Shown here: positions 18,692-24,000 of the stretch, in pieces
Layout of the letters: every line of letters begins with the position of its first letter
Numbering within the stretch: position 1 is the stretch's first letter
NCBI RefSeq assembly: GCF_001443605.1
Contig: NZ_CP013118.1
Location: 418,225-442,224 of the forward strand
Reading direction: 5' to 3'
Source: Salinivirga cyanobacteriivorans
GTDB taxonomy: Bacteria; Bacteroidota; Bacteroidia; Bacteroidales; Salinivirgaceae
DNA: 24,000 nt
Notes under the pieces: generated by a model
Databases searched by the model: none
Seen by the model: the letters and a program-made list of their open reading frames with translations, nothing else
What the model was told of the DNA's origin: nothing
Position numbers and translations under genes: made by a program

Positions 18692-18709
18692 AAACTCAAC
18701 CATTTATGT

Positions 18710-18746
18710 AAAAGCGGATTTGATTTAAAATCCGCTTTTCATTTTT
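18710..18746 (+). terminator. rho-independent terminator after the oxidoreductase operon
   Basis: Perfect 12-bp stem AAAAGCGGATTT (18710-18721) / AAATCCGCTTTT (18728-18739), with a 6-nt loop and a downstream T-rich tail (cATTTTT). Confidence 0.7.
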
Positions 18747-18753
18747 AATTAAA

Positions 18754-19134
18754 ATGTTCATTAAAATAATTATTATAGGATTTGGAGGTTTTCTTGGTAC
18801 CATTAGCCGCTTCTTGTTGCAAAAAGTTATACAAGAACAGGCAACCTCCTCTTTTCCATGGGGAACACTTGCAGTAAACATTCTGGGAAGTTTTATTATC
18901 GGGGTGGTATTTGCACTCTCGGTGCGAAACAATTACTTATCACCCGTTTGGCGTAATTTTTTAGCTATAGGTTTTTGTGGCGGATTTACTACATTCTCCT
19001 CTTTTTCACTTGATAACTATCAACTTTTGGCGCATAACCAGATTTTATTTACAATTTTATATACTGCAATTTCTGTGATTTCTGGTTTATTATTCTTATA
19101 TTCAGGCATATTAGCAGTAAGGTTTTTTTCGTAA
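18754..19134 (+). CDS. crcB: fluoride ion channel CrcB/FluC
   Basis: 126 aa with four TM segments. Motifs: 'GFGGFLGTISRF', 'PWGTLAVNILGSFIIG', 'GFCGGFTTFSSF'. Confidence 0.9.
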   Translation: MFIKIIIIGFGGFLGTISRFLLQKVIQEQATSSFPWGTLAVNILGSFIIGVVFALSVRNNYLSPVWRNFLAIGFCGGFTTFSSFSLDNYQLLAHNQILFTILYTAISVISGLLFLYSGILAVRFFS

Positions 19135-19196
19135 TTGCCAGATGAGCTAGTACACTTATAAGCTTGCTTGTGCTGGCAGAACCAAATTTAGCTAAG

Positions 19197-19532
19197 ATGC
19201 AGTATAAATCTAAAAATAAATTACGGATAATTACTGGTGAAAATGCCATGTACAGGCATACACCACTGCATGAAGCAATTATTTATGCAGCAAAGAAGTC
19301 AGGTATGGCAGGCGCCACTGTATACAGAGGCATAATGTCGTATGGTGAAAAAAGTCAAATAAGAAGTTTTAGGTTTTTTGCCCTTTCTCAGGATCTGCCG
19401 GTTGTCACAGAAATTATTGATTCAGAGAAAAAAATCATCGAATTTCTGGAAATTTTGAAAAAAATGATGGAAAAATGCAACGAAAAGGGGCTAATTACAG
19501 TAGAAAGTACTAGTGTTATTCAATTTGAATAA
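19197..19532 (+). CDS. DUF190 domain protein (crcB-associated, PII-like fold family)
   Basis: The start is taken at ATG 19197 (MQYKSKNKLRIITGENAMYRHTPLHEAIIYAAKKSGMAGATVYRGIMSYGE..., 111 aa). 'GATV.RG..G.G' and 'LSQDLPVVTEIIDSEKKI' match my recollection of DUF190 proteins, which commonly sit beside crcB. Confidence 0.75.
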   Translation: MQYKSKNKLRIITGENAMYRHTPLHEAIIYAAKKSGMAGATVYRGIMSYGEKSQIRSFRFFALSQDLPVVTEIIDSEKKIIEFLEILKKMMEKCNEKGLITVESTSVIQFE

Positions 19533-20222: not shown

Positions 20223-20675
20223 ATGGGTAAAATTTATAGCCTCATAAAACAGCTAACTATGATTATGGTCTTGGGTATAACAAGTTTTAATGCCTTTGCC
20301 CAATATGATAATGATGTGTATAATTTAACCCTTGAAGAGTTATTAAGCATAAACGTTATTTCTGACTCAGCACAGGATATTGAGCCTTCTTATGAAATTT
20401 CTATTGAAGATTTAATGAATCTTGAGCTTGTCAGAGAACTAAGAGTTGAGCATTACCTTGATGTATCGTACGATATACCTATTGAAGATTTAATGCAGGT
20501 GAAAATAGATATAAAAAGAAAAGCAGGCATTGAGCCTACCTATGAAATGTCGCTTGAAGGTCTTACAACGCTTGAAATTAAAGAAAACGTAACTGTTTTG
20601 GAAAAAATCGGACTCACCTATGACCTTTCACTTGATGGTGTAATGAAGTTATCGCTCAAAAACGCCCCGGATTAG
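20223..20675 (+). CDS. secreted repeat protein (five Y-x-[LIM]-x-[LI]-[ED]-x-[LV] units), hypothetical
   Basis: 150 aa. The signal peptide ends 'SFNAFA|QY'. Five related units start at Y33, Y57, Y83, Y107 and Y133. I recognise no family. Coding status is supported by the in-frame periodicity and by same-strand placement 105 nt after the yfiR-like gene. Confidence 0.6.
   Translation: MGKIYSLIKQLTMIMVLGITSFNAFAQYDNDVYNLTLEELLSINVISDSAQDIEPSYEISIEDLMNLELVRELRVEHYLDVSYDIPIEDLMQVKIDIKRKAGIEPTYEMSLEGLTTLEIKENVTVLEKIGLTYDLSLDGVMKLSLKNAPD
20319..20663 (+). repeat. in-frame 72/78-nt (24/26-codon) tandem repeats inside the small secreted protein gene
   Basis: The units are YNLTLEELLSINVIS / YEISIEDLMNLELVR / YDIPIEDLMQVKIDI / YEMSLEGLTTLEIKE / YDLSLDGVMKLSLKN. 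At DNA level, 'ctattgaagatttaatg' is identical at 20401-20417 and 20479-20495. 'attgagcct.c.tatgaaat' recurs at 20379 and 20529, exactly 150 nt apart. Confidence 0.7.
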
Positions 20676-20685
20676 AGCTTTTAAT

Positions 20686-23600
20686 CTAAAACAATTTCAA
20701 TTGATTGCCATCTGCCTTTTGTTTTGTTGAAGATTTCTCCTTAAACTGCTCAGTAAGTGCTTTATTAATACGCCTTAAAAAAGGAGAAACTTTAAGTTTC
20801 TGTTGCTGATTAAATAAGAAACGTTGATTGGCATGCGACAACCATAAATTACCTTTTGCCCTTGTCATAGCTACATACAGCAAACGTTCCTCCTCTTCTG
20901 AGTCTACCTGCTCCCTAAACATGTGAAAAGGCATAATGCCATCTTCCAAACCCGGAATAAAGACAGTATCAAATTCCAGTCCTTTTGCTGCATGCATAGT
21001 AAGTAATTGTACAGCCTCAAGTTTATTGTCTATTGCATCTGCACCCCAACCAGTTTTTAATCGGGTGAGAAATGTTTTACAATCTAACCCATCAGCCATT
21101 GAGCAAATCATTTGATATTGCGTCTGGTCAAATTCATAGTCTGCCCTGAGTCTATTTGTAATAAATTTCAGCGTTTCTGCTGCAGGTTCGTTTTCAGGTA
21201 TTTCTTGCACCAGCGAAAAGGTTTCGGCTTTTAATTCCTTTTGCAAATGCGGCAACTGGTAGTACCTGAAGTTCAGTAAATTAACCACAATAGACCATGG
21301 TGTTTTGTTCCAGAAAGGCTCCTCTCCTGCTTCCTGGAAAGGAATATGATGATCCTTCAAAGCTTTTTTCAGTGCATCTGACTGGCGGCGCGTGCGCATT
21401 AATATAGCAATATCTGATAAACTGACTTCAGCGTCATCATTGCTTGCTACCACCTGGCTATCTTTTGAAAAGAAACCCATACCACCTGTTAAAACTTCAA
21501 TCTTACGGGCAATTCCTTCAGCCTCGGCAGCACCGGAAGCATAGGCCGATATTTTAATTTTCACTCCTTCATTTATACCTTTCAGCGCGCTGGTTTCTGA
21601 AGATAGCACATTGGCCGAAGATGCCAAAATACGCTGACTACATCTGTATGATTGCTGTAAGCGGTAAATAGTTGCCTGTGGAAAGTCTGCTACAAACCTG
21701 CGCATATATTTTACAGAAGCACCCCGAAATCCATAAATGGCCTGGTTGGGATCTCCGACCACATATAAATTAGAATTTTCTCCATCGATAAGTTGATTGA
21801 GTAATTCGTACTGAACCGGATTAGTATCCTGGTATTCATCTACTAAAATATGGCTGAACCTTTGCTGCCATTGTTTGCTTATTTCCCTGTTTTCTTTCAA
21901 TAACTTTACGGGACGATAAAGTAAGTCATCCAGGTCGAACAAATTATTGCTGATCAGATAATCTTCATATTGGTCCAGCAGTTGAATGTCTGCATCTGAT
22001 AGCGCTGACACAATATTTTGTTTATACAGACTAATTTGTACAGCACTTTGCTTTACCTCCCTTAGTTTTTTCCCGGTTATTTGTTGCAAAATTGACACTG
22101 TTTCATCGGGGTCGATGAGCATGAAACCAGGTTTACGCTGCAAATCCTCTGCATGTTCATTACAAATAATAAATCCTAGTCCATGAAAGGTATTGGTTGT
22201 CATTTGCAGAGCTTCCTCATCGGTTTGCAACATATCAGCCAGCCGTGCTTTTATCTCCCCTGCGGCCTTATTTGTAAATGTAATGGTAGCAATTTCCTTT
22301 TGCGGAACAAGCCTATTGTGTATAAGAGAATAGACATGGGCGGTTAAGGTTTTGGTTTTTCCAGTACCGGGACCAGCGAGCACCATTGCAGGGCCGGACT
22401 CATGCAGAGCTGCTTTTTCCTGCGAACTGTTCAGGGCTGAGAGCGGGCCTGTGGCATGCTGTTTTTCATATACAGGACTTTCCGGCTCTTGCACCACAGA
22501 TTGCCGTGTGAGATGAACAGAATGATGTAACCGCTGAAGTGCCTCAAGGTCGAAATTCAACAATGGCCTTTCTTCAGGTAAATCAATATTTTGGGCATCT
22601 TCGTTAAATAACGAATCACCGGATTGCATTTCTCTTATTTCGCCCGGTTTAAAAACGGTAATTTTTCCATATTCACCATCATACCCTTCCTGAATATAGA
22701 CTTTTCGGGCCCGCATACGCTCAATTGCCTCAGCCAGCAAAGGAAAGCCCTGCTGGCTGATATCATCAACCGGCTTTTCGAGCAAGATGTGCATCTCATT
22801 GCCGAGCGTTTTCAAAACCTCCTCGTAATATTGTCCTACTTTTTTTGAGTTTGGCCCTACGCCCTCGATTCCGGCAAGCATTTCCCGTAAAGGAATAATT
22901 GAATAAAATGGTTTTCGATTTTTACGTTCCCTGAGTTCTTTCCTGTCTGATAAATCGGCTACACGGTTCATCACACCTTCGGTCAATTTTTTACCGCAAA
23001 CCGGGCAAATTCCGCCGGCCTCAATAACCTCAACCGGATTCAGGCAAACATTACATTTCCTGTGTCCGGCATAATGATATTTGCCTTCCTGTGGAAACAT
23101 GTCAATGGTTCCTTTAAAGCCGGCATTACCCCCATTTTTCATAGCTTCCGTAATATCATCATAGCTCAGTCCGGTATCGAACCAATTGGCATTTCGTCCA
23201 AGCTTATCGGGTGAATGTGCATCGGAATTTGACAACAATGTAAACTGATCAAGTTCAGAAATCATCCAGTTCATTGCCGGATCTGTGGACAATCCTGTTT
23301 CGACGGCATGAATATACTTTGTCAGATCATCATAACACTCATGAATACTGTCGAAACCCGATTTAGCACCAAGTGCCGAAAACCATGGTGTCCAAATATG
23401 TGCAGGAATGAAAAAAATATGCTCATTTGCCTCAAGCGCTATCTCCAGTAAATCACGGGAATCGAGTCCAAGAATCGGGCGGCCGTCGCTTTTAAGGTTT
23501 CCGCCAATACTTTCCAGCTTATTATTAATTTCGTGAACAGTTCGGAAATCAGGAGCACAAATCACGTTATGCACTTTCCGTGTTTTATCGTACTTTTTAT

Positions 23601-23877
23601 AAATATTACTAATCTCTGAGGTTAGCATAAACCGAACCACTCCTTCCGGGGCATCTTCTTTCAAACGAAATTCCTCTTTTAGCTTAAACAAACCCTGTTC
23701 GGCAGGTTGTAATTTTTGCTGCAATTCATCGAGCCAACCGGGATGGGTAAAATCACCGGTTCCGATTAAATTGATACCTTTCTTCCTACCGAAGAACTCA
23801 AGGTATTCAGGTGTCAATTGTTTACTTGTTGCGCGTGAATAATGCGAATGAATATGAAAATCGGCCAAAAGCTTCAT
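20686..23877 (-). CDS. endonuclease-Q-like PHP/Zn-ribbon nuclease fused to UvrD/PcrA-type SF1 DNA helicase
   Basis: The start is taken at ATG 23877 (MKLLADFHIHSHYSRA..., 1063 aa). The N-terminal ~410 aa carry the PHP metal motifs 'DFHIHSHYS', 'GTGDFTHP', 'IPAHIWTPW' and 'LSNSDAHSP'. They also carry the zinc ribbon 'CNVC...CPVC' (nt 22996-23055) and 'EGYDGEYGKI'. The C-terminal ~570 aa carry helicase motifs 'AGPGTGKT' (GPGTGKT = nt 22354-22374), 'TFTNKAAGE', 'ILVDEYQDTN' and 'VVGDPNQAIYGFRGA'. Further helicase motifs are 'LQQSYRCSQ', 'LLTMHAAKGLEFDTVFI' and 'LLYVAMTRAKGNL'. The reading frame is uninterrupted across the junction. Confidence 0.9.
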   Translation of the reverse strand: MKLLADFHIHSHYSRATSKQLTPEYLEFFGRKKGINLIGTGDFTHPGWLDELQQKLQPAEQGLFKLKEEFRLKEDAPEGVVRFMLTSEISNIYKKYDKTRKVHNVICAPDFRTVHEINNKLESIGGNLKSDGRPILGLDSRDLLEIALEANEHIFFIPAHIWTPWFSALGAKSGFDSIHECYDDLTKYIHAVETGLSTDPAMNWMISELDQFTLLSNSDAHSPDKLGRNANWFDTGLSYDDITEAMKNGGNAGFKGTIDMFPQEGKYHYAGHRKCNVCLNPVEVIEAGGICPVCGKKLTEGVMNRVADLSDRKELRERKNRKPFYSIIPLREMLAGIEGVGPNSKKVGQYYEEVLKTLGNEMHILLEKPVDDISQQGFPLLAEAIERMRARKVYIQEGYDGEYGKITVFKPGEIREMQSGDSLFNEDAQNIDLPEERPLLNFDLEALQRLHHSVHLTRQSVVQEPESPVYEKQHATGPLSALNSSQEKAALHESGPAMVLAGPGTGKTKTLTAHVYSLIHNRLVPQKEIATITFTNKAAGEIKARLADMLQTDEEALQMTTNTFHGLGFIICNEHAEDLQRKPGFMLIDPDETVSILQQITGKKLREVKQSAVQISLYKQNIVSALSDADIQLLDQYEDYLISNNLFDLDDLLYRPVKLLKENREISKQWQQRFSHILVDEYQDTNPVQYELLNQLIDGENSNLYVVGDPNQAIYGFRGASVKYMRRFVADFPQATIYRLQQSYRCSQRILASSANVLSSETSALKGINEGVKIKISAYASGAAEAEGIARKIEVLTGGMGFFSKDSQVVASNDDAEVSLSDIAILMRTRRQSDALKKALKDHHIPFQEAGEEPFWNKTPWSIVVNLLNFRYYQLPHLQKELKAETFSLVQEIPENEPAAETLKFITNRLRADYEFDQTQYQMICSMADGLDCKTFLTRLKTGWGADAIDNKLEAVQLLTMHAAKGLEFDTVFIPGLEDGIMPFHMFREQVDSEEEERLLYVAMTRAKGNLWLSHANQRFLFNQQQKLKVSPFLRRINKALTEQFKEKSSTKQKADGNQLKLF

Positions 23878-24000
23878 AAACGTATTTTTTACGAATTTAG
23901 GGTAAGCCAGCCAGAATATGAGCAAATAGATTTAGAAGTTATTTACATTTTTTCAACTGACTTTAATGCTCAATGCGTCAAAAACTTATCAAAGCCGTAA

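Follow-up and report, generated by a model that had tools for sequence, protein, structure and literature searches.

The locus described here raises the question of what a bacterial gene does when it joins a lesion-specific nuclease and a DNA helicase in a single polypeptide. The window analysed (the whole stretch of 24,000 nucleotides (nt) from Salinivirga cyanobacteriivorans, contig NZ_CP013118.1, positions 418,225 to 442,224) carries such a gene on its minus strand, where all features of the gene given below also lie. The complete coding sequence (20686..23877) is one intact open reading frame (ORF), which runs from an ATG at 23877 to a stop codon at 20686-20688 and encodes a fusion of endonuclease Q (EndoQ) and a UvrD-like helicase of 1063 amino acids (aa). 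An earlier interpretation made from the letters alone (hereafter the sequence-only reading) had claimed an uninterrupted 1063-aa ORF in which two complete enzymes are joined. Both parts of this claim were upheld, the first by the ORF call and by an identical RefSeq protein, the second by alignment, Pfam profiles and a structure model. The database entry is ALO14036.1 / WP_057951625.1 of S. cyanobacteriivorans, which comes from a finished 4.8-Mb genome. The presence of a complete EndoQ and a complete UvrD-type helicase in a single polypeptide is thus confirmed, far beyond chance. As to its function, we consider it roughly 55 % probable that the fusion protein is a chromosomal housekeeping repair enzyme, in which a lesion-specific EndoQ and a UvrD-like 3'-5' helicase would be recruited by the beta clamp and would nick and unwind damaged DNA.

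Conservation was followed across 63 homologues, and an AlphaFold2 model of the fusion protein was built on the same homologues (mean predicted local distance difference test score (pLDDT) 78.6; predicted template-modelling score (pTM) 0.57). An in-frame TTG at 23925 is a possible upstream start that would add 16 aa. The ATG at 23877 was retained as the start because M1 is invariant among the 63 homologues and the RefSeq protein has 1063 aa.

When residues 5-413 were aligned with residues 5-385 of Pyrococcus furiosus EndoQ (PfuEndoQ, PDB 5zb8), 36.5 % identity and an E-value of 2e-57 were obtained, with no large gaps. The EndoQ half of the model was also matched to 5zb8 and 7k30 by Foldseek, with template-modelling (TM) scores of 0.88-0.89 and a root-mean-square deviation of about 3 Å. 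The proposed collinearity of the first ~410 residues with archaeal EndoQ is therefore well founded. Residue mapping to PfuEndoQ and the 63 homologues define a PHP catalytic domain (aa 1-261; 23095..23877) and a Zn-binding domain (aa 262-328; 22894..23094). The alignment and the model define the C-terminal helical domain (aa 329-413; 22639..22893), which includes the GYDGEYG beta-hairpin loop.

The Zn ligands of PfuEndoQ are H8, H10, E76, H84, H139 and D193, plus H195; its wedge is W144, and its DNA-binding residues are R201, K243, R251 and K320 (PMC5961232). T and A are kept out of the base pocket by G169 and S171 (PMC8307549). In the Salinivirga protein, the metal ligands correspond to H8, H10, E88, H103, H160, D219 and H221, and the base-pocket and wedge residues (H139, G169, S171 and W144 in Pfu) correspond to H160, G195, S197 and W165. 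All of these are invariant in 63/63 homologues, and the PHP-type metal ligands that had been recognised in the sequence can be accepted. The DNA-binding residues map to K225, K266, K274 and K345. K266 and K274 are invariant in the 63 fusion proteins, position 225 is occupied by either K or R, and K345 is found in 60 of the 63.

In the case of the zinc site, the sequence-only reading has to be corrected. It had proposed a CxxC-x15-CxxC zinc ribbon, and the pattern found is HxxCxxC-x12-CxxC (H272, C275, C278, C291 and C294). Four of these residues, namely H272 (at the position of Pfu C249), C275, C291 and C294, are invariant in the 63 homologues, and C278 is present in only 45. The Pfu site is of the C4 type (C249, C252, C268 and C271), and H272, C275, C291 and C294 probably represent an H-C3 variant of it. 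When the EndoQ half was compared with the NCBIfam model TIGR00375, the whole model was covered (2-374 of 374) with a score of 186.3 bits against a cut-off of 326.6. Judged by this score, it is a homologue of the TIGR00375 family and not an equivalog of the archaeal type.

The second half of the protein is a superfamily 1A (SF1A) helicase core of the UvrD/Rep/PcrA type (aa 479-1038; 20764..22443), as identified by Pfam and NCBIfam profiles, structure matches and the 63 homologues. Residues 479-1038 matched the full Pfam UvrD-helicase model with an E-value of 2.7e-66 (224.5 bits; cut-off 23), and UvrD_C was matched in the same half with an E-value of 2.2e-35 (123.1 bits; cut-off 25.6). The structures of Rep, UvrD and PcrA matched it at E-values of about 1e-56 to 1e-62. 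When the helicase half of the model was compared using Foldseek, UvrD (DNA complexes), PcrA and Rep were recovered at E-values of about 1e-32 (TMt 0.6-0.67), and the four-subdomain 1A/1B/2A/2B fold was found. Motifs Q (Q486), I (GPGTGKT, 502-508), Ia (TFTNKAA), II (DEYQD, 680-684), III (GDPNQAIYGFRGA), IV (YR, 744-745), V (HxxKGLEF, 962-969) and VI (VxMTRA, 1002-1007) are all invariant across the 63 homologues, so that the helicase half is expected to be an active ATPase. This agrees with the earlier statement that every SF1A motif from I to VI is present.

The Rep alignment, the model and the homologues indicate a shortened 2B subdomain (aa about 859-950; 21028..21303). It consists of roughly 91 aa, versus about 165 aa in Escherichia coli Rep, and is the least conserved region of the fusion protein. 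Since 2B is auto-inhibitory in Rep, the reduced 2B may let the helicase act as a monomer. UvrD and PcrA possess a C-terminal Tudor-like extension that serves as the RNA polymerase-binding domain. Such an extension was not found here; only ~25 residues remain where the Rep alignment stops, the last of them forming a clamp motif.

The current product names of the fusion protein are 'ATP-dependent DNA helicase PcrA' and 'UvrD-helicase domain-containing protein', and related proteins carry the database labels 'TIGR00375 family' or 'UvrD-helicase domain-containing'. When the NCBIfam models were applied, the scores were 336 bits for Rep TIGR01074 (cut-off 951), 248 for Rep NF008172 (cut-off 1168), 316 for PcrA TIGR01073 (cut-off 911) and 290 for UvrD TIGR01075 (cut-off 1144). 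An assignment as an orthologue of UvrD, PcrA or Rep was ruled out on these values (248-336 bits versus equivalog cut-offs of 911-1168). Because the scores fall so far under the equivalog cut-offs, the name 'PcrA' is not justified; on the profile comparison it is a misannotation, and it also ignores the EndoQ half.

The two modules are connected by a linker (aa 425-478; 22444..22605) that was delimited from the model and from conservation and contains a helix and a low-confidence stretch (456-470). The sequence-only reading had given its length as ~70 aa. A linker is indeed present, but it is shorter, about 55-65 aa (414/425-478). Conserved residues at the junction are F424, R437, F442 and D443. 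An RxLINFDL-type linker motif (aa 437-444; 22546-22569; pLDDT about 80) is found in Bacteroidota and several other phyla and is absent in Desulfobacterota, which have long Lys-rich linkers instead. In the model, this motif hints at a defined contact between the modules.

Two candidate clamp motifs were observed, one at the end of the EndoQ module and one at the end of the protein, and they are a feature beyond the sequence-only reading. The bacterial beta-clamp-binding consensus is QL[S/D]LF, and archaeal EndoQ binds PCNA via a C-terminal PCNA-interacting (PIP) box and is stimulated by PCNA (PMC4858679). The Salinivirga protein ends in the pentapeptide QLKLF (aa 1059-1063; 20689..20703), which corresponds to this consensus, and the family alignment shows no variation at Q1059, L1062 or F1063. 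The C-terminal pentapeptides seen most often in 248 full-length relatives were QLSLF (50), QLKLF (18), QLELF (9) and QLRLF (8). The strict pattern Q[LMIVFY]xL[FM] was found in the last 12 residues of 52 of the 62 complete fused genome orthologues and in 0.16 % of interior 12-residue windows; relative to the interior, QLxLF is enriched about 500-fold at the C-terminus. The QLKLF tail is the predicted bacterial counterpart of the archaeal PIP box, and clamp tethering of the fusion protein is plausible on this motif evidence.

The second candidate is an internal clamp-motif-like remnant, QSGDSLF (aa 418-424; 22606..22626), which was recognised from the alignment and from stand-alone relatives. 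F424 is invariant, and L423 is found in at least 90 % of the homologues. In many lineages the motif takes the form Qx[S/x]LF; Desulfobacterota, for instance, have GQQSLF or GQKSLF. Because stand-alone EndoQ relatives end at this very position in a clamp motif (QLTLF, QMVLF, QLALF or QMGLF), the remnant looks like the kept C-terminus of an ancestral stand-alone EndoQ.

When a representative library of 1.84 billion proteins was searched without profiles, using the EndoQ domain alone as the query, 1026 clusters were found at an E-value of 1e-30 or lower. Helicase sequence followed the EndoQ domain in all of the best 150 clusters, in which matches of less than 950 aa were fragments. At the 50 % identity level, at least 150 clusters conserve the fusion. 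In a species scan (one genome per GTDB species), close relatives were confirmed in at least 590 species genomes, which span many phyla. Bacteroidota, Desulfobacterota, Clostridia, Negativicutes, Chloroflexota, Spirochaetota, Planctomycetota, Myxococcota, Nitrospirota, Omnitrophota, KSB1, Binatia, Latescibacterota, Gastranaerophilales and others appear in the titles of the relatives listed.

Gene forms were scored in the best 80 loci of the species scan; about 65 of these loci, spread over many phyla, are fused. Complete fusions were found in 62 loci, and eight more reached the contig end with helicase sequence already started. Two loci are split into adjacent co-directional genes (L029 and L063), two have frame breaks between the modules (L059 and L080), and stand-alone EndoQ genes, considered below, were also found. 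In L059 (5518-8604) and L080 (6001-9312), which are from Clostridia, the modules lie in different frames; these may be frameshifts, pseudogenes or sequencing errors.

Both split operons, L029 (6001-8907; Omnitrophota-labelled genome) and L063 (2249-5007; Planctomycetales-labelled genome), consist of an EndoQ gene followed by a helicase gene, with a gap of 20-90 bp. The EndoQ proteins have 430 and 428 aa, respectively, and the helicases, with almost no 2B, have 507 and 483 aa. A clamp motif closes each of the four proteins (DQLTLF and FQMTLF in L029; QQMVLF and LQLKLF in L063). The first zinc ligand (aa 272-275 of the fusion protein, window 23053-23064) is Cys in the EndoQ of L029 and His in that of L063. 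Since the fusion is widely conserved and adjacent co-directional split genes exist, the two halves are functionally linked. The modules occur fused, split-adjacent and stand-alone, a pattern that counts as classic evidence for cooperation of both activities.

How the two activities might cooperate can be considered from what is known of each enzyme. SF1A helicases translocate in the 3'-5' direction, and UvrD unwinds DNA from nicks made by repair endonucleases. EndoQ nicks DNA 5' of deoxyuridine (dU), deoxyinosine (dI), deoxyxanthosine (dX) and abasic (AP) sites, leaving a 3'-OH and a 5'-phosphate (PMC4357722). In the housekeeping repair scheme that we favour, the QLxLF tail, perhaps also the internal xSLF remnant, would first tie the protein to DnaN. 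The EndoQ module would then flip out the deaminated or abasic nucleotide (dU, dI or AP) and cut immediately 5' of the lesion, which would leave a 3'-OH and a lesion-bearing 5'-phosphate. In the third step, the helicase would load at the nick, move 3'-5' on the undamaged strand and strip off the lesion-bearing 5' end. The undamaged strand is assumed because the lesion-bearing 5'-phosphate end must be displaced for the lesion to be removed. As PfuEndoQ stays bound to its nicked product (PMC5961232), the same helicase action would also release EndoQ. Finally, polymerase, a flap or 5' nuclease and ligase would complete the repair. For the Salinivirga protein, we infer the substrate range, the clamp binding, the strand choice of the helicase and the coupling of both activities.

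Several observations weigh against this scheme. Stand-alone EndoQ genes with no helicase in their flanks were found in six of the 80 best loci (the downstream flank is only 1.4-2.8 kb in four of the six), and because such close relatives lack a nearby helicase, the helicase is not obligatory for EndoQ function. Pol I nick translation can in principle finish the repair after a 5' nick without any helicase. The model does not fix reliably how the two modules lie relative to each other (pTM 0.57; linker pLDDT <50), so that a physical hand-off path is hypothetical. QSGDSLF in the Salinivirga protein is a poor match to the clamp consensus. The strand tracked by the helicase is one that we purely infer. 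Lastly, our literature search found no biochemical or genetic study of the fused EndoQ form, and the statement in the sequence-only reading that no biochemical characterisation of this architecture was known to it stands.

A wider proposal can be put forward tentatively, at somewhat worse than even odds. Helicase-linked EndoQ, either fused or as an adjacent pair, would be the predominant natural form and would supply the missing downstream step of bacterial EndoQ-initiated alternative excision repair. The reduced-2B helicase and the nickase would both be docked on one beta-clamp dimer, via the internal xSLF and the C-terminal QLxLF, as a self-contained nick-and-unwind machine.

Alternatively, the helicase may be a motor for turnover or scanning that does not excise a strand; it would free EndoQ from its product or carry the nuclease along DNA, and Pol I nick translation would follow. 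The retention of PfuEndoQ on nicked product (PMC5961232) agrees with such a role, as do the close stand-alone EndoQ genes that do without a linked helicase, and the long, partly disordered linker suits a loose tether over a fixed hand-off. However, the contact hinted at by the linker motif at aa 437-444 (pLDDT about 80) would be a defined one, and the presence of its own clamp motif on each half in the split operons suggests sequential action at the same clamp-marked site. We regard a pure motor role as rather unlikely.

A role in the restriction of foreign DNA was also considered, in which the protein would nick phage DNA at dU or other non-canonical bases and the helicase would expose the DNA for degradation. 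We hold this to be improbable. Nuclease-helicase pairings do recur in defence systems, and the helicase half scored on the PADLOC models for GajB (up to 265 bits) and for DRT-associated helicases, but these matches correspond to generic UvrD similarity, and the EndoQ half gave one weak PADLOC match only (PbeC, E-value 0.043). Defence was rejected as the main reading, as the helicase half gave no more than generic GajB/UvrD matches in PADLOC and the EndoQ half no significant one.

The genomic context points in the same direction. In the window, the fusion gene is accompanied by 2-oxoacid:ferredoxin oxidoreductase genes, CrcB, DUF190 and a YfiR-like protein. In Prolixibacteraceae, the order response regulator, fusion gene, coaX and dxs is conserved, and other contexts surround the fusion gene in contigs labelled Armatimonadetes and Omnitrophota; the neighbours are lineage-specific metabolic genes. 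When all ORFs from 85 loci were clustered all against all, no conserved partner gene was found, and the top family, present in 13 loci, was lineage-specific. No GajA-like or other defence partner, defence island or mobile-element gene was seen in six sampled contexts, which extends the earlier observation that the neighbourhood holds no other defence genes. EndoQ-domain relatives were found in none of 50,697 phage genomes and none of 2.9 million viral contigs. Of 72,556 plasmids, a 733-kb Brevibacillus replicon gave the single match; it encodes a stand-alone 'endonuclease Q family protein', and the genes on either side (nudF-like on the one, spoIIM/fur/xerD on the other) make up a context of chromosomal type. 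In addition, conservation of the protein is high (mean column identity 58 %), synteny is kept within a family, and a clamp motif for the host replisome suits genome maintenance more than defence. Because the gene is self-contained, chromosomal and vertically maintained, genome maintenance is favoured over phage defence. The preference of the sequence-only reading for housekeeping repair is supported by the context, the absence from phages and viruses, the plasmid context, the PADLOC results and the clamp motif.

Some further features of these neighbourhoods were recorded. A small unannotated ORF of 150 aa (window 20223-20675, plus strand) is convergent with the fusion gene, and 10 bp separate the two stop codons. 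Its product carries a hydrophobic segment at the N-terminus and roughly four internal repeats of the type (I/L)EP(S/T)YE(I/M)S(I/L)E(D/G)L, and gave no Pfam match. In the region 18692-19532 of the window, a crcB fluoride-channel gene (18754-19134) is followed by a DUF190 gene, and the gap upstream is only 62 bp. An Rfam scan of the whole window at the gathering threshold returned no family, and thus no fluoride riboswitch. The upstream gene in the close relative L001 was considered and set aside; its product looks like a signal-peptide/beta-barrel protein, gave no Pfam match and seems unrelated. A Pur_DNA_glyco gene (3-methylpurine/hypoxanthine glycosylase family) lies ~3 kb upstream in two Prolixibacteraceae genomes (L002 5273-5674 and L003 4080-4604), and an AlkD-like DNA_alkylation gene lies 0.5 kb upstream of the fusion gene in L005 (6737-7456). 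These nearby base-damage repair genes may be weak hints of a repair neighbourhood, or may reflect lineage synteny alone.

There is likewise only a small chance that the protein serves in surveillance at the replication fork. It would ride the beta clamp at or behind the fork, with the helicase on single-stranded template and EndoQ cutting uracil or hypoxanthine in single-stranded or nascent DNA. The clamp motif is present as this would need, EndoQ acts on both single-stranded DNA and duplex, and its association with PCNA has led to a proposed link with the replication complex (PMC8307549). On the other hand, a cut in the single-stranded template at a fork would produce a double-strand end, which is costly for a housekeeping enzyme, and no fork-associated neighbours or partners were found among the 85 loci.

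That the fusion is an artefact, in which a frameshift or a faulty assembly near nt 22440-22650 merged two genes, is effectively refuted: although the frame does break between the modules in two of the 80 loci (L059 and L080), the same frame is found in independent isolates and metagenome-assembled genomes at 96, 75, 70 and 61 % identity, as it is in hundreds of genomes at greater distance, the collinear form occurs in more than 120 full-length homologues (47-96 % identity), the junction holds the conserved F424, R437, F442 and D443, and the sequence is identical to the protein of the finished 4.8-Mb genome.

The housekeeping repair enzyme that we favour bears on a gap in the repair literature, where the steps after the EndoQ or EndoV nick are still called unclear. 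From the fusion, the split operons and the presence of a clamp motif on each half, a UvrD-like helicase and the beta clamp emerge as candidates for the factors that act next, and the fusion gene gives direct access to what follows the nick in endonuclease-initiated alternative excision repair. The distribution survey (at least 590 bacterial species genomes, with most of the best matches fused) also challenges the published view of EndoQ as essentially archaeal with 'a few' bacterial homologues.

The implied novelty of the fusion was overstated in the sequence-only reading. Bacterial EndoQ homologues that carry QL[S/D]LF at the C-terminus are listed in Suppl. Fig. S1 of Shiraishi et al. (2016); 10 of them are short (405-464 aa) and 34 are long (945-1244 aa), and the long ones include the Bacteroidota genus Proteiniphilum (PMC4858679). 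A 2017 study, as cited in PMC5961232, divided the EndoQ proteins into three families 'based on the domain organization', and the long bacterial homologues probably fall in bacterial family 2 or 3 of that classification. They share with the Salinivirga protein the length class (about 945-1244 aa versus 1063 aa), the N-terminal EndoQ, the C-terminal QLxLF and a similar spread (Desulfobacterota, Clostridia, Spirochaetes, Chloroflexi, Myxococcota and, with Proteiniphilum, Bacteroidota), but come from different species. The architecture is therefore already on record, and the Salinivirga protein adds a member to a catalogued, biochemically uncharacterised family. In the literature searched, the extra 600 aa of the long homologues are nowhere named as a UvrD-type helicase, and there is no mention of the split operons, the internal motif remnant, the RxLINFDL motif, the short 2B or the scale of the distribution.

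When compared with characterised enzymes, the EndoQ half resembles the EndoQ of P. furiosus (5zb8, 7k30-33) and of Bacillus pumilus/subtilis in its PHP, Zn-binding and C-terminal helical fold, its catalytic and pocket residues and its association with a C-terminal clamp motif (the PIP box in archaea). These enzymes are stand-alone proteins of about 390-425 aa, whereas in the Salinivirga protein a linker and a 560-aa helicase come after the module. His replaces the Cys of Pfu as the first Zn ligand, and the clamp motif is of the bacterial type and has moved to the end of the helicase.

The helicase half has the same 1A/1B/2A/2B architecture and motifs as UvrD, PcrA and Rep, the SF1A helicases known from nucleotide-excision and mismatch repair, with about 25 % identity in the structural alignment. 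Unlike these, it has a half-size 2B and a clamp motif in place of the Tudor/RNA polymerase-binding domain. In the case of UvrD, PcrA and Rep the nicking enzyme is recruited, whereas in the Salinivirga fusion it is covalently attached.

AddA, RecB and AdnB likewise combine an SF1A motor and a nuclease in one chain, but gave weaker structural and profile matches. Their nuclease is a C-terminal PD-(D/E)xK domain, and they act on double-strand ends in multi-subunit complexes. In the Salinivirga protein, the nuclease is N-terminal and by its sequence a PHP-type, lesion-specific nickase, and no gene for a partner subunit accompanies it. With GajB of the Gabija system, only the UvrD-like core and its generic helicase motifs are shared, which accounts for the PADLOC scores of up to 265 bits. 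The Salinivirga locus has neither an adjacent gene for GajA, an OLD/TOPRIM nuclease, nor a defence island.

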